From an uncultured Spirochaetales bacterium (GTDB lineage Bacteria > Spirochaetota > Spirochaetia > Sphaerochaetales > Sphaerochaetaceae), in contig CASFDA010000010.1 in assembly GCA_949293335.1 (NCBI GenBank), positions 2,567 through 66,566 on the forward strand: a stretch of DNA of 64,000 nucleotides, read 5' to 3'. The position numbers and the translations under genes are program-made. The notes under the pieces were generated by a model that worked only from the letters and a program-made list of their open reading frames with translations, made no database searches and was not told where the DNA came from. Shown one piece after another: positions 44,495-63,858 of this stretch (within the stretch, counting starts at the first letter, position 1; each line of letters begins with the position of its first letter).

Positions 44495-44507
44495 GAAGGA
44501 GGTTTTC

Positions 44508-46283: not shown

Positions 46284-46379
46284 TTCTTTCCATTCATCAA
46301 GAGATATTGGTGAATTCGGGAGAGGTCTTTTCATAAAGGATCTCTCCCTGTATTTCAAGCATGAAAAAGGAGAAATGCA

Positions 46380-47414: not shown

Positions 47415-47425
47415 GGAGGACTGAT

Positions 47426-48515: not shown

Positions 48516-48949
48516 TATGTGCAAAACATTGTACCATGGTACGCTATGCTTCAATATCTGATGTTATCAATTGAACATGGTTTAGTATGGTCTTGGATTA
48601 TTTCATATTCGTGATTCAAATCTTTATTTTAGTCACAATATGGCAATAGAGTTATTGTCAATTTCCCGGCAGATAGTTCTAGAATGAATATATTTTTCTA
48701 TTTCAAACTTTGCTTTCATCAAATGTTTTTGCTGCAGAAGTGTGAGTTATTTTATGTCAGGTAATGAACCTTAAAATATATTTTATAAGCAAAATATCAG
48801 AGTAGAAATATATTTATTAAAGATTGATAATTATTGAAAAATTTATATTTATTTCTTTAAATGTAAGAAATTAAATAATAAATTATTATGTGCCATATTC
48901 TATTTGACAGATATTAATTACTGCTCGAAAATATATTTGTGAGGGTTGA

Positions 48950-49621
48950 ATGACAGATAAACAATATAAAACAAAGAGCGATATGGTATACCATAAAATG
49001 CGGGAATCTATATTCAAGGGAGAATATACGCCCGGTGAGAGAATATTCGTTTCCGTGGTAGCTGAACAATATGGAATAAGTGAGATTCCTGTCCGTGAAG
49101 CCTTCAGAACCCTTGTGCAGGAAGGTGTTCTTACTTCCAAACCGAACAATGGATTCTTCATAAGCCAAATATCATTGAAGGAAGTCAAAAATATATTCAG
49201 AGTACGTGTTCTTTTGGAATCAATGGCAACTAAAGAAGCATGTAACAATATTACGGAAGAAGGTATAGCCTCTCTTGAGTCATTATATCAGGAAGGACGT
49301 GCGTTTATCAGTTCTGGTGATTTTTCTGGCTACTGGAAGCACAACAGAAAATGGCATTTCATGATTTATAGCTTCTCTGGAAACGATGTGCTTGTAAGAC
49401 TTATTTCTGAACTTTTTGATTTCTCTGCCCGCTATCCACTGTATTTCACTAAGAAAGAAGAGATAGAGGACTCCATGGTTGTACACCGGCAGATTATAGA
49501 AGCATTGAAGGAAAGGGATGCTGATGAAGCTGAAGCCCTGATACGAATTCATACTCTCGATACACGCAATCACTATGTAGCGAGGTTGCAGGAAGTCTTT
49601 GGTGAAAGACTGGGGGATTAG
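48950..49621 (+). CDS. GntR-family transcriptional regulator (FadR/FCD subfamily)
   Basis: wHTH VVAEQYGISEIPVREAFRTLVQEGVL plus a helical FCD-type C-domain. 223 aa. Confidence 0.9.
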   Translation: MTDKQYKTKSDMVYHKMRESIFKGEYTPGERIFVSVVAEQYGISEIPVREAFRTLVQEGVLTSKPNNGFFISQISLKEVKNIFRVRVLLESMATKEACNNITEEGIASLESLYQEGRAFISSGDFSGYWKHNRKWHFMIYSFSGNDVLVRLISELFDFSARYPLYFTKKEEIEDSMVVHRQIIEALKERDADEAEALIRIHTLDTRNHYVARLQEVFGERLGD

Positions 49622-49623
49622 AA

Positions 49624-50721
49624 ATGAACATCAATGCAGTCAGGACCACTATTCTCAAAAAACCTGTACAGAAAAGCTTTGGAAGTTCTGGCCATAACTA
49701 TAATGTCGGCGGTTATCTCCTGACACAAGTATTTACGGATGAAGGACATGTTGGTAACGCTCTTACATATTTTGGGCTGATCGAGTCCGGGATGAAGACG
49801 ATCAAACTCGTTATTGACTCTGAATTGACACCTCTTCTTATTGGAAAGGATCCGCATTTCGTTCGCCAGATAAGAAGAGAGATGTTTTCTCATCTTTCAT
49901 ATTACGGGACTACGGGAATATCCACGATTGCCATATCTGCTGTGGACATTTGCCTATGGGATCTCATAGGCAAGGATGCTGGTGTCCCGTCTGCATTTGT
50001 CCTTGGTGCTTCAAGAAAATCTGTTCCAGCATATGCGATGGTTGGCTGGTATTACCAAGGAGGTATAGCTGATTTGGTTGATGCTTCGATCAATGCTGTC
50101 GAGGAAGGATTCAATGCTATAAAGATAAAAGTTGGGAGAGGGAATCTTTCTGATGATATTGAAAGGATCAGGGCTGTCCGGTCTGCAGTCGGAGATGATA
50201 TCAGGATAATGGTTGATGCAAACTGTGCTTTCGATGAAAGTGAGGCTCTCCATAGAGGACAGTATTACCAGGATGAAGGTGTTTTTTGGTTTGAAGAACC
50301 TTTGGATCCTTATTTTCTCGAAGGGCATAGGAGGCTAAGGGAAAAACTTTCAATCCCCATTGCCATTGGGGAGAACTATTACACCAAATATCAATTCCAG
50401 CAGGCAATTGACATGAAGGCTGCCGATATCCTACAGCCGGATAACAGGCGGGCAGGGGGAGTAACTGAATGGATGGACATCGGTTCCATTGCATCTGTGC
50501 ATAGGCTGAAGATCGCAAGTCATCTGGGTGGCCCGGGGAATGTTAATGTCATGTGTGCCATCGAGAATGTTATCTATCTGGAGTGCGAAGGCATAAAGAG
50601 GGACAACGAAATGTACGAACATCCCCTTACTATGACAGATGGAAAAATAGTTTTGCCTGACGTGCCTGGAATGGGAAATGAGATAAGAGAAGATTTCATA
50701 GAAAAATACAGGATTTGTTAG
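49624..50721 (+). CDS. enolase-superfamily enzyme, mandelate racemase subgroup (acid-sugar dehydratase-like)
   Basis: KIKVG (KxK), MVDAN / FEEP / IGEN metal ligands, QPD ... ASH (Asp-His dyad). Confidence 0.8.
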   Translation: MNINAVRTTILKKPVQKSFGSSGHNYNVGGYLLTQVFTDEGHVGNALTYFGLIESGMKTIKLVIDSELTPLLIGKDPHFVRQIRREMFSHLSYYGTTGISTIAISAVDICLWDLIGKDAGVPSAFVLGASRKSVPAYAMVGWYYQGGIADLVDASINAVEEGFNAIKIKVGRGNLSDDIERIRAVRSAVGDDIRIMVDANCAFDESEALHRGQYYQDEGVFWFEEPLDPYFLEGHRRLREKLSIPIAIGENYYTKYQFQQAIDMKAADILQPDNRRAGGVTEWMDIGSIASVHRLKIASHLGGPGNVNVMCAIENVIYLECEGIKRDNEMYEHPLTMTDGKIVLPDVPGMGNEIREDFIEKYRIC

Positions 50722-50749
50722 TTGGCATGTTATGAAAAGGAGGGTTTGA

Positions 50750-51889
50750 ATGAAGATCACATCGTGTACAGCTATGATATTGAGAACACCTGTTTCTAGA
50801 CCTTTCACATCTGCTAGAGGCTGGTGGTACAAGACAAAGAATGCAATGCTAGTGCATATCGAGACAGATGAAGGTATTGATGGATGGGGCGAGGCATATG
50901 GACCTGCTGAATGTACGAAGCAGGTTGTGGATTCTCTTCTTGCTCCTCTTCTTGTCAATCAGGATCCGTTGGATACCAATGTCCTTTGGGAGAAAATGTA
51001 TCAGCGCATCGAGGATTACGCTCCTCAGGGGTTCGGTGTCGCTGCAATCAGCGCAATAGATATTGCATTATGGGATATAAAAGGTAAGTTTTTCGGACTT
51101 CCTGTATACAAGTTACTCGGAGGAGCTCACCGGCTATCTCTTACTCCTTATGCAACAGGGCTTTACTTTACAGAAGAAGATGGTGATTTCATAACTCCTG
51201 CTGTTTCTGAGGCAATTAAATACAAAGAAATGGGATTCAAAGGCATAAAAATGAAGATTGCCTTGAATAGAAAGGAAGAATTGGAAAGGGTGAAGGCCGT
51301 AAGGGAAGCAATCGGGCCAGATATTGAATTGATGGTTGATGCGAACCATGGGTATAGCCTCTATGACGCAATATGGCTTTCAAAAAAATTCGAAGATTTG
51401 GAGATAAGCTGGTTTGAAGAACCTATTTCACCGCATGACCTGAAGGGGTATGCAGATTTGAGGACAAAAACATCCATTCCTCTTGCAGGAGGAGAGAACA
51501 ACTTCACCCGTTATGCCTTCAAAGATATTTTGGATGAACGTGCCATGGATATCATTCAGCCAGATCTCTGTTGTGCAGGCGGTATAACAGAAGTGATGAG
51601 AATTGCCTCTATGGCAGAAGTTGCGGGGATCACCTGCATGATGCATGTCTGGGGATCTGCTGTAGGTCTTTTTGCTGCATTGAACGTGATGGCCGCTCTT
51701 CCGCCTAGTCCGCATTCTTGGAAACCTGCACCAGTTTGGATGGAATATGAACAGACAGAAAGTCCGTTCCGTGAAAAGCTTGTTACAGAACCGATCAGAC
51801 GAGAGAATGGAGAAGTATACGTTCCTCAGTCCCCGGGACTCGGTTTCACCATAAACATGGATATCGTAGAAAAATATAGGGTCAAGTAA
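50750..51889 (+). CDS. enolase-superfamily enzyme, mandelate racemase subgroup, second paralogue
   Basis: IKMKI (KxK), MVDAN / FEEP / GGEN, QPD ... MHVWGS. Confidence 0.8.
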   Translation: MKITSCTAMILRTPVSRPFTSARGWWYKTKNAMLVHIETDEGIDGWGEAYGPAECTKQVVDSLLAPLLVNQDPLDTNVLWEKMYQRIEDYAPQGFGVAAISAIDIALWDIKGKFFGLPVYKLLGGAHRLSLTPYATGLYFTEEDGDFITPAVSEAIKYKEMGFKGIKMKIALNRKEELERVKAVREAIGPDIELMVDANHGYSLYDAIWLSKKFEDLEISWFEEPISPHDLKGYADLRTKTSIPLAGGENNFTRYAFKDILDERAMDIIQPDLCCAGGITEVMRIASMAEVAGITCMMHVWGSAVGLFAALNVMAALPPSPHSWKPAPVWMEYEQTESPFREKLVTEPIRRENGEVYVPQSPGLGFTINMDIVEKYRVK

Positions 51890-51901
51890 ATAGGGGCAGA
51901 T

Positions 51902-52918
51902 ATGTTCAGAATTCTACTTTCACATCCCCTTTGCGAGGAGGGGATGAGGAAACTCTACACTTTTGATGACATTTCCGTAACTGTTGCAAACGAGGATACT
52001 CCCGAAGGTATATTGCCATATCTTGTAGATGCAGACGCTTTTATCCTTCGTGTTGGCAGTGTCAGCGGCGATATGCTCAGAATGTGCAATAAGCTCAAAG
52101 TTATTGCTAGGCCGGGTGTCGGTGTCGATACTATTGCAGTTTCAGAAGCTACGGCAATGGGTATTCCTGTTGTGATCACTCCAGGAGAAAATAGCCGCTC
52201 TGTTGCAGAACATGTATTTGCTCTGCTCCTCTCCGTTTCAAAAAATCTCTTCGAGAGCAGAAAGGAAGCGCTTCTGGGAAATTACTCTGTCCGAAATAAA
52301 TACAGGTCATTTGAGTTATACGGGAAGACGATAGGGATTGTTGGTTTCGGACATATAGGAAAGCTTGTTGCAAAGATTGCCCAAGGTTTTGGAATGCAGG
52401 TATATGCGTATGACCCGTTTGTCAAAAAGAGTGTAATTGAGGAACAAGGGGTAATTCCTGTGTCTTCCTTAGTAGATATTCTGGAAAAATGCAAAGTCGT
52501 TACACTGCATGTTGCATCAACGGAAGAAACAAGGGGAATGATCAGAAAAGAGACCCTTTACATGATGCAGGATGATTCGATCCTCATCAATTGTGCAAGA
52601 GGCGACCTTGTGAATGAAGAAGATCTTTATGTTGCTTTGAAAGAAGGAAAGCTCATGGCTGCTGCTGAGGATATGATGGCGAAGGAACCTTTCGATCTTT
52701 CCAGTCCTCTCCTGACTTTGGACAATTTCATTGCGACTCCCCATATGGCTGCATTGACAGGAGAGAGTGCTGCGCGATGTGCAATAAAGGCAGTGGAGGG
52801 TGTCATGGCTGTATTGCATAAAAACGAGTGGCCATATGTATACGACAAAAAGGTTTATCAGAGTAGTTCTTGGCTGGAAAGAAAGGAGGAAAAATCTGAT
52901 GCTGATGCGGATAGATGA
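51902..52918 (+). CDS. D-isomer-specific 2-hydroxyacid dehydrogenase (PGDH-like)
   Basis: GIVGFGHIGKLVAK, ARGDLVNEEDL, TPHMAALT. Confidence 0.85.
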   Translation: MFRILLSHPLCEEGMRKLYTFDDISVTVANEDTPEGILPYLVDADAFILRVGSVSGDMLRMCNKLKVIARPGVGVDTIAVSEATAMGIPVVITPGENSRSVAEHVFALLLSVSKNLFESRKEALLGNYSVRNKYRSFELYGKTIGIVGFGHIGKLVAKIAQGFGMQVYAYDPFVKKSVIEEQGVIPVSSLVDILEKCKVVTLHVASTEETRGMIRKETLYMMQDDSILINCARGDLVNEEDLYVALKEGKLMAAAEDMMAKEPFDLSSPLLTLDNFIATPHMAALTGESAARCAIKAVEGVMAVLHKNEWPYVYDKKVYQSSSWLERKEEKSDADADR

Positions 52919-53165
52919 TAAAGACAATGTGGCAGTCGTACTAGTTGATGGGAAAAGGGGAGATGTGCTGAAATGCGGGAATCTGACCATTAAGCTTTTA
53001 TCTGACATTCCGTTTGGCCATAAATGCGCTCTTCAGGAATTCAATGTGAATGACTTGATTATCAAATATGGTCATCCCATTGGTTATGCTACGGAGAAAA
53101 TTTCATGTGGCGAGATTGTCAGGGAAAACAATATGAAAGGCCTGAGAGGCAGGGGTGATATATGA
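52899..53165 (+). CDS. UxaA-family dehydratase small subunit (SAF domain; SuyA-like)
   Basis: MLMRIDDKDNVAVVL...SDIPFGHKCALQEFNVNDLIIKYGHPIGYAT matches the N-terminal SAF domain of altronate/galactarate dehydratases. ATG 52899 lies behind AAAGGAGG. Overlaps the upstream gene by 20 nt. Confidence 0.75.
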   Translation: MLMRIDDKDNVAVVLVDGKRGDVLKCGNLTIKLLSDIPFGHKCALQEFNVNDLIIKYGHPIGYATEKISCGEIVRENNMKGLRGRGDI

Positions 53166-54370
53166 ACAATCTGTGTTTTTATGGGTATAGGCGCCCTGAC
53201 GGTCAAGTAGGTGTCAGAAATCATGTCCTCATTATACCTTCATCAAGAGTATGCAATATCATTGCAAAACGTATTGAATCCTATGTGAACGGCGTGAAGG
53301 CAATAACAACAACAGGCGAAGTATGTCGGCATAGCAAAGACAGAAAACGTCTTTCCGATTTGTATGTTGGCCTCGCGCTAAATCCAAATGTCTATGGCAC
53401 CATCATTCTTGCTCAGAAGAGGAACAATGGTTATCCGGAAATGAAGGCTGAGAGCCTTTTTGATCGAATTCAGATAGCGGGAAAGCCATGTATTGTCCTT
53501 TATATGGATGAGTGTGGTGGCCAGAACTTCCTTGTCGAAAAAGGCATTGACGAAGCGCGTGAACTTGTACGGCAGGCTTCAGCAGAAAGCAGGGTAAAGG
53601 AATCTCTGCAAAAACTACAGATCGGTGTCAAATGCGGATGGTCAGATGCGACTAGTGGAATCAGTGGCAACCCGACATTCGGAAAGGCGGCAGACCTTTT
53701 GATTGAAAATGGGGGAACGGTTCTCTTTTCAGAGACGACAGAATTAATCGGAGCAGAGGAGATTCTAGCAAAGAGATGTGTCAATAAAGAAGATGGAGAA
53801 CGTCTTCTGAAAATGGTGGAACTAGTCGAGACTGCGGCAAAAGCCACAGGAGAGGACATAAGGACAATAAACCCGATACCTGCAAATATTGCTGCTGGAA
53901 TAACAACGTTAGAGGAAAAGTCATTAGGCGCTGTCCGGAAAGCAGGGACAAAACCAATTTCCGGGGTTTTGGATTATTGTCAGAGACCAACCGGGCATGG
54001 CCTATATTTCATGGATGGATGGGCATCCGCCTTTTCTCTTCCTGCCAGTTTGGCTGCGGCCGGATGTGCTATCACTCTTTATCAGTTAGGGGGAGGGGAT
54101 CTTCCTGATGATCCTCCGATGCTGGGGACTAATACGGCAGTTGTTGCGCCTCTAATGTATGTTACGGGTAATCCACACACAGCTGAGAAAGCAAAGAAAA
54201 GCATAGATTTTTCGTCTGCTGATGTTCTTATTGGGAAAACTTCATTAGAAGAAGCGGGATCTGATCTTTTGAAGAAAATCATAAGTGTTGCAAATGGCGA
54301 GTATGCGAAAGGCGAGACGGTAAAGTATCAGGATCTGATAGAACCCTATTTCCTGGGACCTGTTTTCTAG
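53162..54370 (+). CDS. UxaA-family dehydratase large subunit (GarD/UxaA C-terminal domain; SuyB-like)
   Basis: 402 aa starting FYGYRRPDGQVGVRNHVLIIPS, the usual start of the UxaA catalytic domain. ATGA overlap with the small-subunit gene. Confidence 0.8.
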   Translation: MNNLCFYGYRRPDGQVGVRNHVLIIPSSRVCNIIAKRIESYVNGVKAITTTGEVCRHSKDRKRLSDLYVGLALNPNVYGTIILAQKRNNGYPEMKAESLFDRIQIAGKPCIVLYMDECGGQNFLVEKGIDEARELVRQASAESRVKESLQKLQIGVKCGWSDATSGISGNPTFGKAADLLIENGGTVLFSETTELIGAEEILAKRCVNKEDGERLLKMVELVETAAKATGEDIRTINPIPANIAAGITTLEEKSLGAVRKAGTKPISGVLDYCQRPTGHGLYFMDGWASAFSLPASLAAAGCAITLYQLGGGDLPDDPPMLGTNTAVVAPLMYVTGNPHTAEKAKKSIDFSSADVLIGKTSLEEAGSDLLKKIISVANGEYAKGETVKYQDLIEPYFLGPVF

Positions 54371-54379
54371 GGAGGCAGT

Positions 54380-55258
54380 ATGCGTTTGGTAATGTATTTT
54401 GACAATGGAACGAATCGATTTGGAATGCTGTTGAATGACAAGGTATATGACTGTGCCAAGATTGCATCAGAAATAGGTCTTTCTGCTGACATGTCATCAC
54501 TTAGTGCTCTTCTGTTTTCCTGTGATGACTGGTTCTCTTGCCTTGAGATGGTAGAAGATCAGATCAGAAGAAAGGATTATCAGTACATCCCATTTGACAA
54601 ACTCAAATTCCTGTCTCCTGTTACAGATCCGGAAAAGGTATTGGGTGTCGCTCTGAATTATAGGGATTTCTGTATTCGAGGTAATCTGGAGATCCCTAAG
54701 AAACTGAAGGTATTCGGGAAATACAGGAATGCAATATGTGCTTCCGGCGATGAAGTAGATATCAGAGGACGTAATGTCACATATGAGGGTGAGATTGGAG
54801 TTGTAATCGGGAAGAAAGGCAAGAATATTCCTAAAGAAAAGGCAATGGATCATATCGCAGGATATACAGTCATCAATGATTTTACAGCGAACGATCTGAC
54901 CAAGGAGGATGTGCAGCTTTTCAGAGGAAAGAATTTTGATGGTTTTCTCCCAATGGGACCTGTGTTTGTGACGAAAGACGAAATTGATGATATTGACGAC
55001 CTTTGTATTGTCACTTCGGTGGATGGAGAGATGCGGCAAGATTCGAAGGCTGAGAATATGATATTCAAGATACCGGAACAGATAGAGTTCTTTTCTTCTT
55101 TCATGACTCTGGAACCTGGTGATGTGATTCTTTCCGGAACACCTGCTGGAACAGCTACACAATTTTCGCCACCGAAATTTCTACAGGATGGACAGATTGT
55201 CTCTGTGAAGATTGATGGAATATGTACGCTTACTAATAAGATAGTGAATTTCACATAA
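54380..55258 (+). CDS. fumarylacetoacetate hydrolase (FAH) family protein
   Basis: YEGEIGVVIGKKG, GYTVINDFTANDL, RGKNFDGFLPMGP, LEPGDVILSGTPAG are the classical FAH-fold blocks. Confidence 0.85.
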   Translation: MRLVMYFDNGTNRFGMLLNDKVYDCAKIASEIGLSADMSSLSALLFSCDDWFSCLEMVEDQIRRKDYQYIPFDKLKFLSPVTDPEKVLGVALNYRDFCIRGNLEIPKKLKVFGKYRNAICASGDEVDIRGRNVTYEGEIGVVIGKKGKNIPKEKAMDHIAGYTVINDFTANDLTKEDVQLFRGKNFDGFLPMGPVFVTKDEIDDIDDLCIVTSVDGEMRQDSKAENMIFKIPEQIEFFSSFMTLEPGDVILSGTPAGTATQFSPPKFLQDGQIVSVKIDGICTLTNKIVNFT

Positions 55259-55347
55259 CTTAAATATTTGTATTATAAATAATTATTTAGCTATTTACTA
55301 CAAAGGTAGTGAATATAAGTTTGTTACAACCCATAAAGGAGGAAAAA

Positions 55348-56328: not shown

Positions 56329-56382
56329 TTAGTCATCGTGGGAGGTGAGAACCTCCCACAGTCTAGGAAAACTGGAGGAAAG

Positions 56383-58353
56383 ATGATGAGCGACGAAAAA
56401 GTCATCAACAATAGTGTTCAGGAAGAGATTGCAAATACAGACAGTCTCATTACAAAGAGGGAGAGTTTTCCAACAAATATAAACGATTGGATTGTATGGA
56501 TAGTAGCTCTTTGTTTTGCAGTTTTTCATCTATATACAGCAGCTACGGGATCATTGTTGGCTCTTTATCAGAGGTCAATACATTTTGCGTTTGCCGGCTT
56601 TCTCGTATTTTGGCTTTGTCCTTCGAAGACATCAAATTCCAAAACGAAAAAGGTCTTAAAGGTTTGGGATGTATTCCTATCTCTCTGTGCTGTCATACCT
56701 GTTCTTTATTTGATATTTAATGAAGAACTGATAATAAATCGATTCTATTACATTGAAGATCTTGAGTGGTACGAGTATCTGTTTTGTGCAATGCTAGTGC
56801 TTGCCATTCTGGAAGGAACGAGAAGAAAGATGGGTAAGGCTTTGCCAATTATCGCTCTTGTGGCAATAGTCTACATGCTCTTCGGCCGGTATCTTCCTGG
56901 TGTGCTTGGAAACGGAGGATTTTCTCTCATTGCCTTCGTTGATACAATATATATGACGACAGAAGGACCGTTTGGCATTGCCCTTGGTGCATCTGCGACT
57001 TATGTTGTACTTTTTGTCATCTTTGGATCTTTCCTGGAGTATTCAGGGGTAGGTGAATATTTTATCCGTGTTGCACGAACGCTTACGAAGAATTCGACAG
57101 GAGGGCCTGCAAAAGCTGCTGTCATTTCATCATGTCTCTTTGGGTCCATTTCAGGAAGTACGATTGCAAATGTCGCGACCACAGGACAAATAACAATCCC
57201 TCTGATGAAGAAAACAGGCTATTCTAGTGTGTTTGCCGGTGCTGTTGAAGCCGTTGCTTCCACAGGAGGACAGATTATGCCTCCAGTAATGGGCGCAGCC
57301 GCATTCGTTATGGCAGAATATACGGGTATTCCTTATGGTCAGATCATTATTGCAGCTATGATCCCCGGTATCTTGTATTATCTTGCTGTTTTCGTGATGG
57401 TCCATTTCGAAGCGAAGAAGCTTGGGCTTCTTCCAGAAAAGAGTGTCGATCCGACATTGACATTCAAATCGCTTATCAAGGATACGTATCTTTTCATACC
57501 TCTTGTAGTCCTTGTTGTTTACCTTATCCTCGGTTATTCTGCGACATTCGCTGTCCTGAGAGCATTGATTGCTATTTTTATTGTTTCTCTTTTCAAAAAG
57601 GAAACTAGGCTCGGCCTGAGAAGAATTCTCAATTGTCTTGTAAGTGGAGCGAAAGAATGTGTCACTGTCGCGCTGGCTTGTGCTTGTGCTGGCATTGTGG
57701 TTGGCATTGTCAACTACACAGGACTCGGGACACGTCTTAGTGCAATGATCGCAACTGTTGCAGGAAACAGCTTGTTCTTGGCTCTTGTCCTCACTGCAGT
57801 TTGCTCCTTGATTCTTGGTATGGGACTTCCGACAACACCAGCATACATTATTGTGGCAACTCTTCTTGTTCCTACTATCAGGAGTTTCGGAGTCTCTGTG
57901 ATGGCTGCACACCTCTTTGCATTCTATTTTGCAAACGTTTCTGCTATCACTCCTCCAGTAGCACTTGCAGCATATACCGCAGCAGGTCTATCAGGTGCAT
58001 CACCAATAAAGACAGGGTACAAAGCGTTCGCACTGGGTATTGCATCTTACATGGTGCCATTCCTATTTGTGTATAATCCTGTTCTCTTGTTTGATTTTGA
58101 CAGTGTTCTCAAGCTCATACAGGCGATTATCACATCTTGTGTCGGTATCATCCTTTTGGGAATAGCTGCAGAAGGTTTCTTCTATCGCAAGGAAAAGATC
58201 TGGGAACGGATACTGCTTTTCATTGCTGCTATTGGTCTGATTGATTCAGGAACACTCACAGACATTGTTGGAATTGTAATTGTACTTATCGTGATTGTAC
58301 CTCAGATCATCCAGGAACTAAAACAGCGCAAGACAGAAGTTCCTGCAGTATAG
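56383..58353 (+). CDS. TAXI-type TRAP transporter fused permease
   Basis: About 656 aa with many TM segments, immediately downstream of the TAXI SBP. This is the architecture of fused 4TM/12TM TRAP permeases. Confidence 0.8.
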   Translation: MMSDEKVINNSVQEEIANTDSLITKRESFPTNINDWIVWIVALCFAVFHLYTAATGSLLALYQRSIHFAFAGFLVFWLCPSKTSNSKTKKVLKVWDVFLSLCAVIPVLYLIFNEELIINRFYYIEDLEWYEYLFCAMLVLAILEGTRRKMGKALPIIALVAIVYMLFGRYLPGVLGNGGFSLIAFVDTIYMTTEGPFGIALGASATYVVLFVIFGSFLEYSGVGEYFIRVARTLTKNSTGGPAKAAVISSCLFGSISGSTIANVATTGQITIPLMKKTGYSSVFAGAVEAVASTGGQIMPPVMGAAAFVMAEYTGIPYGQIIIAAMIPGILYYLAVFVMVHFEAKKLGLLPEKSVDPTLTFKSLIKDTYLFIPLVVLVVYLILGYSATFAVLRALIAIFIVSLFKKETRLGLRRILNCLVSGAKECVTVALACACAGIVVGIVNYTGLGTRLSAMIATVAGNSLFLALVLTAVCSLILGMGLPTTPAYIIVATLLVPTIRSFGVSVMAAHLFAFYFANVSAITPPVALAAYTAAGLSGASPIKTGYKAFALGIASYMVPFLFVYNPVLLFDFDSVLKLIQAIITSCVGIILLGIAAEGFFYRKEKIWERILLFIAAIGLIDSGTLTDIVGIVIVLIVIVPQIIQELKQRKTEVPAV

Positions 58354-58362
58354 GGGGATGGA

Positions 58363-59676
58363 ATGGAAGGTACTCAGATAAAGTCTGTGATGGCAAGACA
58401 GGTTTTCTCTGGAAGGGGAGAACCTGCAATCGAAGCAACAGTCATAACGAATAACGGTGGGAAGGGAACTGTGCAGGTTGTCTCCGGTCTTTCTATCGGC
58501 ACACATGAAATTGCTTTCAAATTCGATGGAAAGAGTGAATGGCGTGGTCGAGGAGTAGGTAACGCCGTCAGAAGCATAACAGAAGAAATAGGACCAGCCA
58601 TCATCGGTATGGATGCAACAAAACAGGCAGAAGTGGATGATGTGATCTTGAATCTTGGAGGAAGCGATGCGAAACAAAGATTAGGAGGAAATGCTGTCGC
58701 TGCAGTTTCTGCGGCAGTCCTCAAAGCTGGAGCTGAATCGCTGGGAATACCGCTTTACAGGCATATCGGAGGAGAAAGGGCTATTACCCTTCCTTGTGCA
58801 TCGTACGGATGTGTCAGTGGTGGAATAAGGTACAGCGAAGGAATCAAGAGTGGAAGTAAACCCACTTATTCTTTCATCGGTTTTGGTTTTTCATCTTTTG
58901 CAGAAGCTTCATACGCTCTCTTTGAAGTCTTCTCAAAATGGGAAACGAAGATGAATTCAAGATATGGCTTGCGATCTCAGGAACCATCTCCATATTATAC
59001 TTGTTCTGGATTTTTCAGCATTCCAAAAGGTGTGATTGAAAGTGATAAGATCCTGTGGGATGAAATGACAGAGACAATCAATTCTTGTGGGTATGAAGGC
59101 CGGATCGGGCTTCAGGCGGATTTGGCTGCTGACTGTTACTTTGATCGGAAAACACAGGTATATCAGGGACTTTTCAATTCAGATCCACGAAACCGTGAAG
59201 AACAGATTGAATTTGTTGCCTCTCTTGTTGAGAAATACCCTTTTGTCATCATAGAGGACCCTCTGATGGAAGATGATTTTGAAGGCTTCAGAATCCTTTC
59301 TGAGAAGACAGGTATACAGATAGTTGGAGATGATCTGTTTACAACAAATATAAACCGTGTAAGAGAGGGGATAAAGCAGAAAGCAGGCAATACAGTCCTG
59401 TTGAAAGTCAATCAGATTGGATCAATATCAGAAGCACTGGAGATGATACAGCTTGCTTATGAGAATGGATATGGTGTCATGCCATGCTCAAGTAGGGGAG
59501 AAGGTATAGATATCTGCGACTACAGTGTTGGAATCAATGCAGGCAGTATCCGAGAATCCTCTTTGGGTACCCCAGGAACTCGTTTCCTGGAGATTGAGAA
59601 GGAATTGGGTTCTCTGGCCAGATATCAAGGAATCAAAGGTCTGAAGGGAAAGAAATTCCAGAAAGGAGAAGTTTGA
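58363..59676 (+). CDS. enolase-like protein A (non-canonical active site; general-base Lys retained)
   Basis: Collinear with enolase: FSGRGEPAIEATV, VSGLSIG, ADLAADCYF, IIEDPLMEDDFEGF, VGDDLFTTN, LLKVNQIGS. However, YSFIG, TCSGFFSIP, CSSRGEGID and SIRESS replace the QEFMI, GDEGGxAP, SHRSGETED and QIKTGS segments. Confidence 0.7.
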   Translation: MEGTQIKSVMARQVFSGRGEPAIEATVITNNGGKGTVQVVSGLSIGTHEIAFKFDGKSEWRGRGVGNAVRSITEEIGPAIIGMDATKQAEVDDVILNLGGSDAKQRLGGNAVAAVSAAVLKAGAESLGIPLYRHIGGERAITLPCASYGCVSGGIRYSEGIKSGSKPTYSFIGFGFSSFAEASYALFEVFSKWETKMNSRYGLRSQEPSPYYTCSGFFSIPKGVIESDKILWDEMTETINSCGYEGRIGLQADLAADCYFDRKTQVYQGLFNSDPRNREEQIEFVASLVEKYPFVIIEDPLMEDDFEGFRILSEKTGIQIVGDDLFTTNINRVREGIKQKAGNTVLLKVNQIGSISEALEMIQLAYENGYGVMPCSSRGEGIDICDYSVGINAGSIRESSLGTPGTRFLEIEKELGSLARYQGIKGLKGKKFQKGEV

Positions 59677-60953
59677 TGAAGCGATCTAGAATTGTCTCCG
59701 TCAGGGCCATTGAGGCATATTCTGACAGGATGACATCTGCCATAAAGGTTTACGTTGAAACAGAAAGCGGAAAAACCGGAAGCTCTTTGATATGTTCGGG
59801 ATTATCGACAGGAAAGTATGAAAAACCGTTTCTGTATGATGCCGATTCTCGTTTTTCCGGAAAAGGATGCAGAAAGGCTGTCGACTTGATCAATGCAGAA
59901 ATCGGAAAACATCTGATTGGCCTGGATGCGGGAAGTCAGCACCTCTGTGATGAAGTTCTGCTCTCTTTTGGTAAGGAACGAGTTGGTGCAAATACTACAG
60001 CGGCCATTTCGACGGCCATACTGTTTGCTGGCGCTGAGTCTCTTGGAATACCTGTTTACAAGCATATAGGTGGAGTGAGGGCTTCAACTCTTCCTGTCCC
60101 ATCTGCATTAGCCGCAAGTGGTTCTGCCCGATACGGGAATTCTGTGCAATGTGGATATAAACCTTCGTATTATTTTGTCTCTTATGGTTATGAAACATAT
60201 TCTGAGGCATCGAAGGCGTTATGGGAAACTTTCATGGCATGGAATGATCTGATGAAAGAAAAACTCAAAATCAAGATGCAACCCATTGCAGGAATGGCGA
60301 TTCCGAAAGGAAAACTTCCCGATGACTTTGCTTTATGGGAACTTCTTGCTGATGCTATAAACATATCTGGAAATAAAGGCAAGGTTGGCCTTTCTGTCGA
60401 TGTTGCAGCGGCATGCTTCTACAATCATGAGAAAAAAGTATATGAGGGACTTTTCTCCGAAGGTTCAAGAACTAGAGAGGAACAGATTGATCTGATTGTC
60501 AGTATGACAAAAGACTATCCTTTTTTGATTGTGGAAGACCCTTTGATGGAAGATGATTTCGAGGGATTTAGTGAAATTACTGCCAGGACTGATATCCAGA
60601 TTACAGCAGATGATCTGACTGCATCTGATAAGAAGAGAGTTGAAACGGCGATTTCAGAGAAAGCAGGGAATGCTATCAAAGTAGTTACATCGCAGATTGG
60701 AACTGTCTCTGAAATAATAGACCTGGCCCTTTTTGCGAAAGAACGTGGCTTTGGCATTGTCACTTCTGGCGAGAGGGGAGAAGGACTTGCTTCATGTGAT
60801 TATGCTGTTGGTCTGAACGCAGGAACGGCAGGAGAGAATGGAATGTGCTATTCGGGGAACAGACTTCTTCAGATCGAGAGCGAACTTGGTAGAAGGGCGC
60901 GTTTTTTCGGGCAATACGGCATAAAAGGTAAACGATTTCAGTTATCTGATTAG
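59676..60953 (+). CDS. enolase-like protein B (non-canonical; catalytic Lys position substituted)
   Basis: CSGLSTG, VDVAAACFY, IVEDPLMEDDFEGF and TADDL are retained. VVTSQIG replaces KVNQIG. TSGERGEGL and GTAGENG replace the SHRSGETED and QIKTGS segments. The ATG shares one base with the stop of protein A. Confidence 0.7.
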   Translation: MKRSRIVSVRAIEAYSDRMTSAIKVYVETESGKTGSSLICSGLSTGKYEKPFLYDADSRFSGKGCRKAVDLINAEIGKHLIGLDAGSQHLCDEVLLSFGKERVGANTTAAISTAILFAGAESLGIPVYKHIGGVRASTLPVPSALAASGSARYGNSVQCGYKPSYYFVSYGYETYSEASKALWETFMAWNDLMKEKLKIKMQPIAGMAIPKGKLPDDFALWELLADAINISGNKGKVGLSVDVAAACFYNHEKKVYEGLFSEGSRTREEQIDLIVSMTKDYPFLIVEDPLMEDDFEGFSEITARTDIQITADDLTASDKKRVETAISEKAGNAIKVVTSQIGTVSEIIDLALFAKERGFGIVTSGERGEGLASCDYAVGLNAGTAGENGMCYSGNRLLQIESELGRRARFFGQYGIKGKRFQLSD

Positions 60954-60958
60954 AAGGG

Positions 60959-62464
60959 ATGATGATGAGGGTATTAAATAAAAACTCACTGCTTTCTCAT
61001 GGTAACAGAGAGGGACGGAAGATTGCTCTTGATATACTGGAAAAGGGACTAGCTGCAGCAGATCCTTATGACAATACATTGAAGATACTTCGTCGTGATG
61101 GAAATATTATTTCACTTGGCAATGACGAATTTGTCCCTAAAGGATCACCTCGCACTGGCATTGATGAATATATCATTGGCAAGGACATAGATAGAATATT
61201 CGTTTTTGGTGCGGGAAAAGGCATTCAGAGAATTGCAAAAGCCATAGAGGATGTACTTGGAGATGCCATTGCTGGTGGTCTGATCATTGTGAAGGACCAT
61301 GACGAACATTCTTTGTCACACATGGATGTCTGTTATGCAAGTCATCCTGTTCCAGATGAGAGCTGCTTGACTGCAAGCAAAAGACTTCTGGAAAGCATCA
61401 ATAAAGCAAAACTTACAGACAGGGATCTTGTTTTTGTGATAATTGGCAATGGTGCCTCTTCAATGATGACTTATCCTTGGGATGGAATAAGTCTTGATGC
61501 TGTAGCGGACGTTACTAGGATTCTCCAGATAGAAAAGGGATTGATTACTCCTAAATTGAATATTGTGCGCAATCAGTTGGACAGACTCAAGGGAGGACGG
61601 ATTACCCGATATCTGGCAAAGGCAAAGCTTGTTCATCTTTTCCCGATCGATCTTGATGAACCTAATGCATACAATGCTAGCGGATATTATGGACATCTCC
61701 ATAATAATTTTTGGCTTCATTCTCTTCCTGATATAAGCACTCCTGAAAAGGCAGTAGACATTCTGAAGGCGAGTAACACATGGAATGAGGTTGATGCATC
61801 AATCAGGGATTATCTTCTCAATGCTCCTACGGAAAATGGAGTTCTTTCTCCTGAGGAGTTTGAAACGTTTGACAATAGAATCTTCGGACTCATGCCACAA
61901 AAGTATAATTTCATTTCTGCCGTGATGAATTACTCGCGTGAAATAGGTTACGAGCCTCATTTCCTCATGCGAAGAACTTTTGTTGATGCATCTACAACCG
62001 GTGAATTGATAAGTCGTATTGCTCTTAATGTGGAAAATGAGAAAGAACCTTTTTCCTCTCCATGTCTTTTGCTCCTGACAGGCGAGATGATAGTTGCTGT
62101 AGATGGGAAGAAGGGGATCGGCGGACGGAATCAGGAATTTGCCTTAGGAGCTGCGAAAGTTCTCTCCGGCAGCAAACGTATTGTCAGTGTATCTGTCGAT
62201 ACAGATGGAACCGACGGCCCAGGTGGTGATTTTGATCCTGATGCAACAAGACTTGGGTGCAATTGCCTTTCTGGCGGAATTGTTGATGGGTACACGATTT
62301 ATGAGGGGAATGCAAAAGGCATTGACTTTTGCAGGGCACTAGAGATGCACGATGCATCCAATGTTCTCTGGAATACGGACAATGGAATATGGTCCATGCA
62401 TAATATCAGCATTCAGGATCTGATCTTCATGCTTGTAATGGATCATGACGGAGGTACGCAATGA
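60959..62464 (+). CDS. MOFRL-family kinase (glycerate 2-kinase / TtuD-like; DUF4147 + MOFRL domains)
   Basis: IFVFGAGKGIQRIAKAIE (DUF4147 part) and SVDTDGTDGPGG (MOFRL part). 501 aa. Confidence 0.75.
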   Translation: MMMRVLNKNSLLSHGNREGRKIALDILEKGLAAADPYDNTLKILRRDGNIISLGNDEFVPKGSPRTGIDEYIIGKDIDRIFVFGAGKGIQRIAKAIEDVLGDAIAGGLIIVKDHDEHSLSHMDVCYASHPVPDESCLTASKRLLESINKAKLTDRDLVFVIIGNGASSMMTYPWDGISLDAVADVTRILQIEKGLITPKLNIVRNQLDRLKGGRITRYLAKAKLVHLFPIDLDEPNAYNASGYYGHLHNNFWLHSLPDISTPEKAVDILKASNTWNEVDASIRDYLLNAPTENGVLSPEEFETFDNRIFGLMPQKYNFISAVMNYSREIGYEPHFLMRRTFVDASTTGELISRIALNVENEKEPFSSPCLLLLTGEMIVAVDGKKGIGGRNQEFALGAAKVLSGSKRIVSVSVDTDGTDGPGGDFDPDATRLGCNCLSGGIVDGYTIYEGNAKGIDFCRALEMHDASNVLWNTDNGIWSMHNISIQDLIFMLVMDHDGGTQ

Positions 62465-63609
62465 ATAAAATAGATTTCAGGAAAAGACAATTGGCTCTTG
62501 CTGAAAATCTCAGGAAAGAGAATATAGATGCATATCTAGTTACACGTCAGGGTGGTCTGCATTATCTTTGCGGGGTGTTCATGCCATGGAGGGGTGTTGC
62601 TCTAGTAACGAGGAATGGAGATGCTATTCTGTTTTACTGGTGTGGAGATTCGTCTCGTGTCATTCAGGATGATCCCCACATGGAAGTGATAGAATACGAT
62701 GGCAATGAGCTATTTCCCAAAATTATTTCCCATCTTCGTTCTCTCGGAATAATGTCCGGACGTCTTGGCGTTGATCTGATTCTTGGTGGGAATGCCCAGA
62801 TTGCCCCAGGAATGCTGACGGCATCAGAATATCTGGAATTGTCTGGGTATAAAGAGTATCAGATAGTAAATGCTGTAAAGTGCCTTGACGATCTGCTGTT
62901 AATAAAAGAAGATGCCGAACTCGAGAGACTGAGAAAGGCTGCAGAGATTGCTGACTATGGTTATGAACAAGCACTTTCTTCAATCCATCCTGGAATGACG
63001 GAGAATCAGGTTGCCGGCATATTGGAAAAGGCAACTAGAGATAGAGGTAGTTATTGGGCTTGGTCAGTCACTGCAGGTACCGAGGTTGGTTCTGGGCCGA
63101 GGACAGCATTTTCTCATGGGGTGACACAAATTGCCACGGATAGGCAGTTAAGAGAGAATGAATTTGTGATCCTTGATTTCCATCCCTGCTTTGATTTGTA
63201 TTTGTGCGATTTCAGTGTTCCTGTATTCTTGGGTACTCCTAACGAAGAGCAGCGGATTTTGATAGAATGCTGGGAGGAAGCAGTAAACACCGTATTTTCA
63301 CATATCAGTCCCGGAGTTGTAATCGCAGATGCTGTCGCAGCGGGAATTGAAGTCTATAGAAGATATGGTCTTTACGAATATTGTCTCCCACGATTTGGTC
63401 ATGGTCTTGGAGTTTGTGTCAGGACTCCACCTTCTCTGAATCTTAATAATAGAAATACGTTCCAAAAGGGAATGACATTCGCATTCGGAGCCCATCTTTA
63501 CAAACCTGGAGTCGGTGGTTTGCGACTTGAGTATCCTGTTGCAGTAGGAGAGAAATCTGCAATACAGATAGCATCAACTCCAATGAAAGTGCATTTTGTA
63601 TCTTGCTGA
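62461..63609 (+). CDS. M24-family (creatinase/prolidase fold) protein
   Basis: Creatinase_N-like N-domain plus pita-bread domain blocks FVILDFHPCFDLYLCDFSV, GHGLGV and GGLRLEYPVAV. ATGA overlap with the kinase gene. Confidence 0.7.
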   Translation: MNKIDFRKRQLALAENLRKENIDAYLVTRQGGLHYLCGVFMPWRGVALVTRNGDAILFYWCGDSSRVIQDDPHMEVIEYDGNELFPKIISHLRSLGIMSGRLGVDLILGGNAQIAPGMLTASEYLELSGYKEYQIVNAVKCLDDLLLIKEDAELERLRKAAEIADYGYEQALSSIHPGMTENQVAGILEKATRDRGSYWAWSVTAGTEVGSGPRTAFSHGVTQIATDRQLRENEFVILDFHPCFDLYLCDFSVPVFLGTPNEEQRILIECWEEAVNTVFSHISPGVVIADAVAAGIEVYRRYGLYEYCLPRFGHGLGVCVRTPPSLNLNNRNTFQKGMTFAFGAHLYKPGVGGLRLEYPVAVGEKSAIQIASTPMKVHFVSC

Positions 63610-63745: not shown

Positions 63746-63819
63746 GGTGGAAGTAGTTCAGCTGGTAGAGCGCCAGATTGTGGTTCTGGTTGTCGAGGGT
63801 TCGAATCCCTTCTTCCACC
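63746..63819 (+). tRNA. tRNA-His (anticodon GTG)
   Basis: G(-1) GTGGAAG TA GTTC AGCTGGTA GAGC G CCAGA TTGTGGT TCTGG TTGTC GAGGG TTCGAAT CCCTT CTTCCAC C. The extra 5' G paired with the discriminator C is the tRNA-His hallmark. Confidence 0.9.
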
Positions 63820-63826
63820 CTTTTAG

Positions 63827-63858
63827 GTGATTCCATTTCTTGGAGTCACTTTTTTTTT
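63827..63858 (+). terminator. Rho-independent terminator after tRNA-His
   Basis: GTGATTCCA / TTTCT / TGGAGTCAC (9-bp stem with one G-U pair), followed by T9. Confidence 0.7.

Follow-up and report, generated by a model that had tools for sequence, protein, structure and literature searches.

The 13-gene cluster at positions 48950-63609 of the 64,000-nucleotide stretch of uncultured Spirochaetales DNA analyzed here (the window; GenBank contig CASFDA010000010.1) is, to judge from its sequence, like a catabolic operon for sugar acids or organic acids, but it falls outside the gar/gud, diketo-hydrolase and SlcC/ComC/SuyAB systems, since at least one defining component of each is missing or fails to match. 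At its center stands a trio of genes, encoding two enolase-fold proteins (EnoA and EnoB) and a long MOFRL kinase, that resembles a glycerate-kinase/enolase shunt in fold and gene pairing but, by its catalytic residues, does not pass as one that contains a true enolase. We tentatively propose, at somewhat less than even confidence, that the cluster serves the catabolism of a small polyanionic hydroxy acid and its precursors, under GntR/FCD control and with import by TAXI-TRAP, and that it is built of interchangeable modules around the conserved trio; in it, (S)-3-sulfolactate would be phosphorylated at its 2-hydroxyl and the product converted by EnoA to phosphoenolpyruvate (PEP) and sulfite. 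With the same reserve, we suggest that the kinase and an EnoA/EnoB heterodimer could constitute a previously unknown, ATP-neutral desulfonation route in anaerobes. Gene anatomy, synteny, residue patterns and gene linkage were observed; the statements about function are inferred from sequence, synteny and criteria from the literature. In the literature searched, the coverage of which is incomplete, so that an earlier description is possible, neither the trio nor the 13-gene enzyme combination has been described. A preliminary description of this DNA had held that no complete known pathway matches the enzyme set, and that view stands, the same incomplete search having returned no assignment.

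Organization of the Cluster

The program-made list of open reading frames (ORFs) gives 13 consecutive ORFs on the + strand between 48950 and 63609, and searches with the Pfam and NCBIfam hidden Markov models (HMMs) placed all 13 products in the families to which the preliminary description had assigned them. The features are as follows.

48904..48932, + strand: promoter-like site TTGACA-17-GAAAAT, with 10/12 consensus matches the best + strand site (consensus match only)
48950..49621, + strand: GntR/FCD transcription regulator, 223 amino acids (aa) (Pfam GntR and FCD; no NCBIfam equivalog)
49624..50721, + strand: MR1, MR-subgroup enolase-superfamily enzyme, 365 aa (Pfam MR_MLE_N/C)
50750..51889, + strand: MR2, MR-subgroup enolase-superfamily enzyme, 379 aa (Pfam)
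51902..52918, + strand: D-2-hydroxyacid dehydrogenase (2HDH), like phosphoglycerate dehydrogenase (PGDH) without regulatory domains, 338 aa (Pfam 2-Hacid_dh/_C)
52899..53165, + strand: small subunit of a split UxaA/GarD-family enzyme, forming its N-terminal part, about 88 aa (matches positions 2-78 of the NCBIfam galactarate dehydratase model)
53162..54370, + strand: UxaA/GarD-family large subunit, 402 aa (Pfam GD_AH_second and GD_AH_C)
54380..55258, + strand: FAH-family protein, 292 aa (Pfam FAA_hydrolase)
55309..56328, + strand: TAXI-family TRAP solute-binding protein, 339 aa (TIGR02122)
56338..58353, + strand: TRAP fused permease, 671 aa (TIGR02123)
58363..59676, + strand: EnoA, enolase-fold protein with a non-canonical active site, 437 aa (Pfam Enolase_N/C)
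59673..60953, + strand: EnoB, degenerate enolase-fold partner, 426 aa (Pfam Enolase_N/Enolase_C)
60959..62464, + strand: long MOFRL/DUF4147 kinase, 501 aa (Pfam)
62461..63609, + strand: M24/creatinase-fold protein, 382 aa (Pfam Creatinase_N and Peptidase_M24)
63747..63851, + strand: tRNA-His, then a terminator-like hairpin at 63825-63851; probable 3' boundary

Junctions between the 13 ORFs span -20 to +50 nt and include four overlaps. From the GntR gene to the small UxaA subunit they measure +2 (GntR/MR1), +28 (MR1/MR2), +12 (MR2/2HDH) and -20 nt, the last if the small subunit begins at ATG 52899, a start inferred from the translation and from the orthologue in locus L006. Thereafter they measure -4 (small/large subunit), +9 (large subunit/FAH), +50 (FAH/TAXI), +9 (TAXI/permease), +9 (permease/EnoA), -4 (EnoA/EnoB), +5 (EnoB/MOFRL) and -4 nt (MOFRL/M24). 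The 560-bp gap upstream of the GntR gene is AT-rich (34% GC) and contains the promoter-like site at 48904-48932. No strong terminator-like hairpin was found on the + strand inside the cluster; the sole strong + strand element of this kind, with an 11-bp stem and a T-run, is the one that follows tRNA-His. The close junctions, together with a single good promoter-like site ahead of the GntR gene and a single strong terminator beyond the last gene, make it likely that the 13 genes form one transcription unit, as the preliminary description had expected from their common direction and close spacing.

None of the operon's enzymes scores at the level of an NCBIfam equivalog, each being a generic member of its family. 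Curated cut-offs are passed by the two transporter proteins only: the TAXI solute-binding protein scores 211 bits against a TIGR02122 cut-off of 84, and the permease 645 bits against a TIGR02123 cut-off of 321. The closest structures to the binding protein are 8u79 and 1us4.

An Altered Enolase-Fold Pair and Its Kinase

EnoA and EnoB were aligned to Methanocaldococcus jannaschii enolase (2pa6) with HMMER and, in a multiple alignment, with canonical enolases; a yeast enolase reference served for numbering only, and the residues so assigned are the same as in the HMMER alignment to 2pa6. Both proteins fall below the cut-off of 300 for the eno equivalog TIGR01060, EnoA at 282 bits and EnoB at 214. 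EnoA retains Ser39, Lys345 as the base and Asp246, Glu295 and Asp320 as metal ligands; the ligands and Lys345 are present in 13/13 EnoA sequences from the collected loci and in all 120 of the database homologues listed. In the same 13 locus sequences, His159 is without exception replaced by Arg, Gln167 by Pro, Glu168 by Thr or Ser, Arg374 by Ser, Ser375 by Arg, Lys396 by Arg, and Glu211 by Ser, Ala, Cys, Gly or Thr; His373 has become Ser in 10 of them, the other three having Asp or Leu. The set that serves the leaving 3-hydroxyl in enolase (Glu211/Glu168/His373) and the set that binds its substrate (Arg374/Lys396/His159) are thus both replaced throughout the EnoA family, the 120 database homologues included. 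In their place the family has invariants of its own, which among the 120 homologues are Arg156, Tyr157, Lys166, Pro167, Trp193, Gln251 and Met373-Pro-Cys375, together with Ser377, Arg378, Tyr387, Arg397, Glu398 and Arg407.

In enolase, Glu211 and Glu168 catalyze departure of the 3-hydroxyl, and a single Glu-to-Gln change at either position costs roughly 10^4-10^5-fold in rate. Since both glutamates are replaced, EnoA, judged by its residues, cannot be an efficient 2-phosphoglycerate (2-PG) dehydratase and is not an enolase. With two carboxylates fewer and several cationic side chains more than in enolase, the active site argues for a substrate that would carry one more anionic group than 2-PG. 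Three other candidate substrates were set aside: L-2-phosphoglycerate, because EnoA still has Lys345 and shows no variation in the Arg residues of the canonical phosphate site; tartronate, which is achiral and would yield no useful product; and 2,3-bisphosphoglycerate, which would give a futile cycle.

EnoB is 43% identical to EnoA. Its residue at the position of Lys345 is never Lys, the metal ligands are lost in loci L003, L010, L011 and L024, and the protein is missing from some EnoA loci; we read it as a probable non-catalytic dimer partner of EnoA. The likeness of EnoA to canonical enolases (2pa6, yeast 1ONE) is substantial: the two-domain Enolase_N/Enolase_C fold at about 35% identity, the three metal ligands, Ser39 and Lys345, and a genetic pairing with a MOFRL kinase as in a shunt from glycerate through 2-PG to PEP. 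The differences are that the EnoA family replaces Glu168, Glu211, His159, His373, Arg374 and Lys396 and gains Lys166, Arg156, Arg378, Arg397 and Arg407, that EnoA lies below the equivalog cut-off, that a degenerate paralogue, EnoB, adjoins it, and that it occurs in catabolic operons with transporters.

The kinase has a DUF4147 plus MOFRL architecture (Pfam) and is related to TM1585 (2b8n, 140 bits) and PH0495, with about 70 extra residues in extra segments. Against the glycerate 2-kinase models it scores 109 and 97 bits, where the cut-offs are 550 and 670. Like the class II (MOFRL) glycerate 2-kinases of the TM1585 type (2b8n) and of T. tenax and P. torridus, it combines DUF4147 with MOFRL and is paired genetically with an enolase-fold protein. 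It differs from them in length (about 500 aa versus about 400-440), in its extra segments, in its score far below cut-off and in forming a family of its own, which accompanies EnoA and in some loci (L072, L100) is present in two copies. In those two termite-gut metagenome loci (L072 5629-10219, L100 5906-10219), two full-length tandem MOFRL genes lie beside EnoA with no EnoB, the kinase being duplicated instead of the enolase-fold protein. In the literature searched (coverage incomplete), we found no description of a MOFRL and enolase pairing, a LarA and enolase pairing, a sulfolactate kinase or a phosphosulfolactate lyase.

A third kind of enolase stands beside a MOFRL gene in two loci of Anaerolineales/Chloroflexi metagenome-assembled genomes (MAGs), L014 (2463-5109) and L019 (1727-5199), in the latter also adjoined by a GntR gene. 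It has the canonical Glu168, Glu211, Lys345, Arg374 and Lys396, with His159 changed to Leu and His373 to Glu, and the accompanying MOFRL proteins are 31-32% identical to that of the window. This enolase may be an intermediate form of the kinase-enolase pairing.

The Trio as a Widespread Module

The full gene order recurs in L001 (a Logan assembly), in L006 (a Clostridia MAG from a Hadza gut) and in L032/L033, with 46-82% identity per protein. This answers the question of conservation left by the preliminary description, and the arrangement is not due to chance, since the order recurs in independent metagenomic loci. Reduced forms also occur: L007 and L031 are without both MR genes, L008 and L042-44 keep MR2 and have lost MR1, UxaA and M24, and L034 carries a rearranged version. 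Across loci the block 2HDH-FAH-TAXI-TRAP-EnoA-EnoB-MOFRL is invariant (47-82% identity). MR2 is the best conserved of the upstream genes (71-79%), MR1 is missing from the L007 and L008 types, and the GntR gene is present in L001 and L006 and positioned elsewhere in L008, L034 and L043.

The trio of EnoA, EnoB and MOFRL kinase also stands alone outside these full and reduced operons, accompanied by TctCBA (a tripartite tricarboxylate transporter, TTT), LarA and a GntR or RpiR gene in L003 (Desulfovibrio MAG), L009 (Anaerotruncus) and L022 (borne on a mobile element), by LarA in Treponema L010, by DctPQM in L024, L029 and L050/51, by a major facilitator superfamily (MFS) carrier in L028, and by a LysR gene only, with no transporter, in L011 and L052. 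The Anaerolineae loci L004 and L023 have MOFRL and EnoA without EnoB. In L022 (4197-21329), the trio, LarA, TctCBA and RpiR lie among TnpV, relaxase/MobC, rve integrase and serine-recombinase genes, and its EnoA (P0028) is listed in 42 blocks of an assembly collection. From the surrounding mobile-element genes and these 42 blocks, the L022 version of the trio appears to be mobile and widespread.

A scan of metagenomes for the motifs [VI]MPC[SCA]SRGE and VG[IL]N..RE, both missing from canonical enolases, found 327 EnoA relatives and returned 80 loci; dereplication at 90% identity left 26 with enough flanking sequence. Linkage was counted within 4 kb of EnoA, the upper values of ranges referring to 7 kb. 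By this measure a MOFRL gene accompanies EnoA in 81-86% of the 26 loci and EnoB in 54-62%, followed by the TRAP permease (31%), FAH (19-29%), 2HDH (12-33%), MR (8-29%), LarA (15%) and M24 (12-14%); TauE, SftI-like isomerases and aldehyde:ferredoxin oxidoreductase (AOR) are each near EnoA in a minority of loci. EnoA has at least 120 homologue clusters (at 90% identity), 53-100% identical to it. An exact-sequence look-up of EnoA found no match on record, PLSDB holds no member of the family (only canonical eno, at most 37% identical), and a genome scan for EnoA returned MAGs only and no cultured host. Homologues with a source name all come from metagenome-assembled anaerobes; the hosts sampled are MAGs of gut Clostridia, Lachnospiraceae, Anaerotruncus, Treponema, Desulfovibrio and Anaerolineae, and the rest are unbinned metagenome contigs.

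The linkage frequencies and the stand-alone trios indicate that the operon is modular and that the version in the window is one elaboration of a far more widespread kinase and enolase-fold unit. The preliminary description had treated the 13 genes as one fixed pathway, and this part of it must be given up: MR1, UxaA and M24 are dispensable, and the trio is autonomous and more widespread than the operon. One could go further and regard the cluster as a mosaic of several independently regulated adjacent units with no common substrate, and the coming and going of MR1, UxaA, M24 and GntR among relatives, like the solitary trios, would fit such a view. We nevertheless consider it very improbable, given junctions of -20 to +50 nt with four overlaps, the single good promoter-like site upstream, the lack of any strong internal terminator and the order from 2HDH to MOFRL that is kept across loci at 47-82% identity.

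Whichever substrate proves correct, EnoA represents a large family with a coherent but different active site, a pseudo-enzyme partner and a dedicated kinase, and it serves as a warning against annotating EnoA and MOFRL genes of this kind as "enolase" and "glycerate kinase."

A Possible Route for Sulfolactate

In the mechanism that we favor, the long MOFRL kinase would phosphorylate the 2-hydroxyl of a D-configured 2-hydroxy acid, and the EnoA/EnoB heterodimer would hold the resulting 2-phospho acid through the retained Mg ligands. Lys345 would then remove the proton from C2, and the group at C3, one able to leave without an acid catalyst, would be expelled; PEP would be the product, from which pyruvate kinase could regain the invested ATP. 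Our guess at the substrate is (S)-3-sulfolactate, which would pass through (2S)-2-phospho-3-sulfolactate to PEP and sulfite, in a reversal of the ComA reaction. Phosphorylation at O2 would yield a substrate with at least three negative charges, the sulfonate would fill the former 3-hydroxyl pocket (Thr/Ser168, the small residue at 211, Ser373 and Lys166), and sulfite could depart without acid catalysis once C2 is deprotonated. Since the Cahn-Ingold-Prelog priorities of COOH and CH2X swap, (S)-3-sulfolactate corresponds spatially to D-glycerate, a shared configuration that would suit a kinase descended from the D-glycerate 2-kinases and an enolase-fold enzyme with Lys345 on the same face.

Other genes of the operon could be accommodated. 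The split UxaA protein, as a putative SuyAB-like lyase, would act on the other enantiomer, (R)-sulfolactate, and this would explain why the operon has no racemase and why operons without a SuyAB-like enzyme carry LarA. The PGDH-like 2HDH might interconvert sulfolactate and sulfopyruvate, given that sulfolactate is isosteric with 3-phosphoglycerate. MR1, MR2, the FAH protein and the M24 protein would process related sulfo- or carboxy-acid precursors, by beta-elimination, decarboxylation or tautomerization. The minimal operons, consisting of an anion transporter, the trio and sometimes LarA, also count in favor of sulfolactate, because their importers are of the TTT and TRAP types and the LarA of L022 belongs to a group that acts on C3 acids; sulfolactate importers reported or proposed so far are a TTT (SlcHFG) and a TRAP system (DctPQM2).

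The nearest chemical precedent is ComA, the (2R)-phospho-3-sulfolactate synthase of coenzyme M synthesis, whose Mg-dependent chemistry on PEP and sulfite the proposed EnoA reaction would reverse. The difference is that ComA is biosynthetic and that EnoA, by stereochemical reasoning, would use the opposite configuration at C2. ComA belongs, as far as is known, to an unrelated protein family. No published sulfonate pathway has a counterpart of the kinase and enolase-fold step. To our knowledge, the enolase subgroup of the enolase superfamily has so far been treated as isofunctional. If our proposal is true, EnoA would perform the first non-enolase reaction in that subgroup, a catabolic mirror of the ComA step; confirmation of the sulfite-lyase reaction would make the enzyme activity itself new and define a new mechanism of C-S cleavage. 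Gut and termite-gut bacteria could then use the sulfolactate enantiomer made by sulfoglycolysis without a racemase, releasing sulfite, the precursor of H2S, and the route would supply a missing link between dietary sulfoquinovose and gut sulfite and H2S.

The Split UxaA Enzyme and Possible Sulfonate Contexts

The preliminary description had raised a sulfolactate route by way of the split dehydratase, and this is the one of its suggestions that gains strength, both because the window enzyme is split and has lost the Cys tetrad and because EnoA and MOFRL lie beside sulfoglycolysis-like genes in two unrelated loci. SuyAB is the sole heteromeric member of the UxaA/GarD family to have been characterized, and the sole one without the four conserved Cys (PMC6336799). 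In the window, the small and large subunit genes overlap by 4 nt, and the four Cys columns of the large subunit read Val, Val, Tyr, Cys, as they do in the orthologues of L001, L006 and L007. All four Cys are kept in three full-length UxaA-type proteins and in the split enzymes of Sporomusa, Selenomonas, Bacillus F19 and Priestia. A split enzyme from Variovorax has Asn, Arg, a gap and Cys in these columns, and its neighbors (2-Hacid_dh, a TTT binding protein, the ComC-family Ldh2, and GntR) make up a sulfolactate-type cluster; the 2HDH of the window is 32% identical to the 2-Hacid_dh of that cluster. By sequence, then, the window enzyme shows two SuyAB traits, the splitting and the loss of the Cys tetrad, as these are given in the published description and not by comparison with an authentic SuyB. 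In a neighbor-joining tree the window clade joins the Variovorax protein weakly; identity and tree being indecisive on orthology with SuyB, only the Cys-tetrad test is informative. Cys loss in the UxaA family is not confined to one lineage: a split enzyme on Haloferax volcanii pHV3 (L110, 7457-9840) is likewise without three of the four, and its neighbors are Gfo/Idh/MocA oxidoreductases, an MFS carrier and a pair of MR-family genes.

The window operon shares with the SlcC/ComC/SuyAB systems of C. salexigens, Paracoccus and Taurinivorans muris a split UxaA-family lyase without the Cys tetrad, an adjacent D-2-hydroxyacid dehydrogenase, TTT- or TRAP-type import, GntR-type control and a presumptive small chiral 2-hydroxy acid of which both enantiomers must be handled. 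It differs in having neither a ComC (Ldh2 family) gene nor a sulfite exporter (TauE), and in being only 35% identical to the candidate SuyB.

The sulfoglycolysis-like contexts are found in Anaerolineae and in a termite gut. SqvD/SftI (PF02952) and SqvB, a distant AllA homologue, are characteristic of all three of the sulfo-TAL, sulfo-TK and sulfo-EMP2 pathways; sulfofructose kinase belongs to the PfkB family, the mutarotase YihR belongs to PF01263, and clusters of Chloroflexi and Thermotogae are "extended" by SuyAB (PMC9594981). In L004/L005 (Anaerolineae), the genes after MOFRL and EnoA encode a PF02952 protein, a PfkB kinase, a member of the GH35 family and two MFS carriers. In L077 (termite gut), MOFRL and EnoA lie next to genes for two PF02952 proteins, two PfkB kinases, an aldose epimerase of the YihR family (PF01263) and a 165-aa protein with a weak, 25-bit match to ureidoglycolate lyase (AllA-like). 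For all three PF02952 proteins, sulfoquinovose isomerase SftI is the sole or top NCBIfam match. Elsewhere, a TauE-family gene and a LarA gene flank an EnoA-family gene in L027 (7633-11272), a locus whose surroundings include pyridoxal-phosphate enzymes of Cys/Met metabolism and the cofactor genes LarB/C/E. One EnoA host is the Desulfovibrio MAG of L003. HpcH, DHDPS and AOR genes recur near EnoA, and sulfofucose catabolism is known to employ an MR-family sulfogalactonate dehydratase together with an aldolase of the HpcH family.

Several observations weigh against sulfolactate. The SftI matches reach 98-148 bits against a cut-off of 700, so the clusters in question may serve another sugar. TauE is near EnoA in 1/26 loci; L027 has no MOFRL kinase within 10 kb and does not fit a model in which the kinase acts first, and about 19% of EnoA loci, L027 and L091 among them, have no kinase nearby. 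The window contains neither a sulfite reductase nor an exporter, and its other 48 kb are without sulfite or sulfonate genes. Its large UxaA subunit is 35% identical to the SuyB-like protein of Variovorax and 36-39% identical to split dehydratases that contain the Cys residues, and split UxaA enzymes in dehydratase-type contexts also exist. The nearest characterized relatives of MR1 and MR2 act on aldarates or anhydro-galactonates, and the FAH and M24 proteins have no assigned role. Elimination of sulfite to PEP is probably endergonic (an estimate, not computed) and would need a pull by consumption of PEP and sulfite. Finally, AOR, aldolase, MR and His_Phos neighbors fit glycerate, by way of a non-phosphorylative Entner-Doudoroff (ED) pathway, equally well. 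Because sulfoglycolysis copies glycolysis, and the non-phosphorylative ED pathway uses an MR dehydratase, a DHDPS aldolase, AOR, a MOFRL kinase and enolase, the surrounding genes by themselves do not distinguish sulfolactate from glycerate; as far as residues can tell, it is the EnoA active site that would tip the balance.

The FAH Protein and Tartrate as a Possible Alternative

Among solved structures, the FAH protein comes closest to YisK of B. subtilis (8sky), which decarboxylates oxaloacetate and binds L-tartrate, oxalate and 4-hydroxy-2-oxoglutarate. Acylpyruvate and diketo-acid hydrolases of the FAH superfamily carry a catalytic His/Glu pair (Watanabe et al., PMC6336799). The window protein reads NYRDFCIRG where the hydrolases have NY..H..E, so that the dyad is missing; the same is true of 7/7 orthologues examined, which together with the window protein read NY-[RK]D[FM]C.[RK]G, and the dyad is present in the FAH proteins of Priestia and of the Bacillus F19 fucose-type cluster. 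The metal-ligand motif E-x-E...D is recognizable in the window sequence, and the score against the model for the hydrolase of the rhamnonate route is 151 bits, where the cut-off is 500. With its dyad missing, the protein is more likely to be a decarboxylase, tautomerase or dehydratase than a C-C hydrolase.

For MR1, the top NCBIfam model is L-talarate/galactarate dehydratase (214 bits, cut-off 500), and the closest structure is 3,6-anhydro-L-galactonate cycloisomerase 5xd7. For MR2, the top model is archaeal arabinonate dehydratase (267 bits versus 650), and the closest structures are 5olc (343 bits) and 4ggb/4hpn (313 bits); 5olc and 4ggb we take to be 3,6-anhydro-D-galactonate and galactarolactone cycloisomerases. 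Cycloisomerases of the 5xd7, 5olc and 4ggb kind eliminate a beta-alkoxy or acyloxy group, not hydroxide. The best model for 2HDH is PGDH (274 bits versus 454). The M24 protein, aligned to P. furiosus prolidase (1pv9), keeps 4/5 metal ligands, Glu313 being changed to Gly, and the substrate residue His291 has become Arg.

These enzymes could also belong to an operon for hydroxy-dicarboxylates of the tartrate type, which we hold to be unlikely but worth setting out. The TAXI-TRAP system would import tartrate isomers or similar C4-C6 acids, MR1, MR2 and the split UxaA enzyme would dehydrate the stereoisomers to enol-oxaloacetate, and the YisK-like FAH protein would tautomerize or decarboxylate oxaloacetate. 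The kinase and EnoA would deal with a further isomer by way of 2-phosphotartrate, from which beta-elimination of phosphate would give oxaloacetate, or dehydration a phosphoenol-dicarboxylate. D-tartrate dehydratase is a member of the MR subgroup; TAXI, TTT and DctPQM systems are typical dicarboxylate carriers; YisK is an oxaloacetate decarboxylase with affinity for L-tartrate and 4-hydroxy-2-oxoglutarate, and loss of the hydrolase dyad agrees with a decarboxylase or tautomerase; the very cationic site of EnoA would suit an extra carboxylate; and malate racemases of the LarA family epimerize tartrate. The LarA of L022, however, scores 443 bits to 2yjg versus 193 to malate racemase Mar2 and so falls among the lactate racemases and not the malate racemases; enzymes of the lactate-racemase group racemize lactate, glycerate and other small 2-hydroxy acids. 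Elimination of phosphate would, moreover, cost a fermenter one ATP for each tartrate without return, three isomers would be served by four routes, and the sulfoglycolysis-like neighbors and TauE would be left unexplained. Loss of the Cys tetrad in UxaA points to SuyAB, not to a dehydratase, and the literature searched does not mention a phosphotartrate or tartrate kinase. Were tartrate or another hydroxy-dicarboxylate the substrate all the same, the operon would represent a phosphorylative alternative to Fe-dependent dehydratases.

LarA proteins of the L003/L009 type have no relative in the PDB and are 44-47% identical to the LarA homologue of a cluster on Sporomusa termitida plasmid pSPTER (L026, 2989-10980). 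That cluster combines MR, TctCBA, the LarA homologue, a split UxaA enzyme with four Cys, and GntR, in a layout that equals that of the operons with Tct, LarA and the trio, a UxaA-type enzyme replacing the kinase and EnoA. By a comparison with the published primers, its LarA is neither LarAH62 (malate/tartrate) nor LarAH66, the two characterized enzymes of S. termitida, and primers for characterized LarAH proteins found no match in any EnoA locus collected.

Glycerate and the Known Sugar-Acid Routes

Another explanation, and the first to be considered in the preliminary description, is that a hexonate or aldarate is dehydrated, oxidized and cleaved to pyruvate and D-glycerate, with MOFRL as a glycerate 2-kinase and EnoA/EnoB as dedicated enolases making PEP. 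At the level of families its logic is complete, since the MOFRL family contains glycerate 2-kinases. An MR dehydratase, a DHDPS or HpcH aldolase, AOR, MOFRL and enolase form the archaeal non-phosphorylative ED set, and such neighbors recur around EnoA; a split UxaA enzyme and FAH occur together in the fucose-type diketo-hydrolase cluster of Bacillus sp. F19, some LarA enzymes racemize glycerate, and Chloroflexi loci pair a near-canonical enolase with a MOFRL gene. Details of the proteins weigh against it. EnoA is without Glu168, Glu211, His373, Arg374 and Lys396, EnoB is without Lys345 as well, and both lie below the eno equivalog cut-off; the kinase, with its roughly 70 extra residues, scores 109 bits where 550 is required. 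Two defining parts of the route are gone: the FAH protein and its orthologues have no His/Glu dyad, in contrast to the FAH proteins of Bacillus F19 and Priestia, and no short-chain dehydrogenase/reductase (SDR) that could serve as the 4-dehydrogenase is encoded between 48950 and 63609. We consequently regard plain glycerate as decidedly unlikely, and leave the rest of the probability, beyond that assigned to sulfolactate, tartrate, glycerate and a mosaic, to something not yet thought of.

Comparison with the established routes leads to a similar picture. With the non-phosphorylative diketo-hydrolase pathways for L-fucose and L-rhamnose, and with pentose Route III (Watanabe 2019), the operon shares an MR- or UxaA-type dehydratase and FAH in one cluster, and a fucose-type cluster with a split UxaA enzyme and FAH exists (L025). 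The operon differs in having no SDR 4-dehydrogenase, lactonase or sugar dehydrogenase, in its dyad-less FAH protein and in a transporter for acids, not sugars.

The suggestion of a gud/gar pathway is borne out in part: the nearest models of MR1, MR2 and UxaA are of the aldarate type, whereas GarL, GarR and KdgD are missing, as the preliminary description had itself pointed out, and the cluster indeed contains no gene of the HpcH, DHDPS or 3-hydroxyacid-dehydrogenase families. In likeness to the gud/gar systems (E. coli, and the GudL variant of gut Clostridia), talarate/galactarate dehydratase is the nearest model for MR1 and galactarate dehydratase that for UxaA, and the last step is glycerate-kinase-like. 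MR2 is presumably like a galactarolactone cycloisomerase (4ggb). The differences are the absence of a GarL/GudL aldolase, GarR and KdgD, a UxaA enzyme that is split and Cys-less, and a kinase of another family than GarK.

Neighboring Genes

Immediately upstream of the 13-gene cluster, at 34092-48388 on the + strand, lies a separate co-directional operon headed by a LacI gene, a second unassigned sugar-acid route. It encodes an Opp-type ABC importer (SBP_bac_5, two permeases and two ATPases), a 474-aa MR-family protein, two RraA-like proteins, a 2-Hacid_dh protein, an SDR, a zinc-dependent alcohol dehydrogenase, a PfkB kinase and a KDPG/KHG aldolase. Farther upstream, and unrelated to the operon, two LicD-family genes and a DUF4422 gene (25216-28880) are followed by an NTP-transferase/aminotransferase fusion gene (30362-32206). 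These genes presumably serve the decoration of the cell surface with phosphocholine or teichoic acid.

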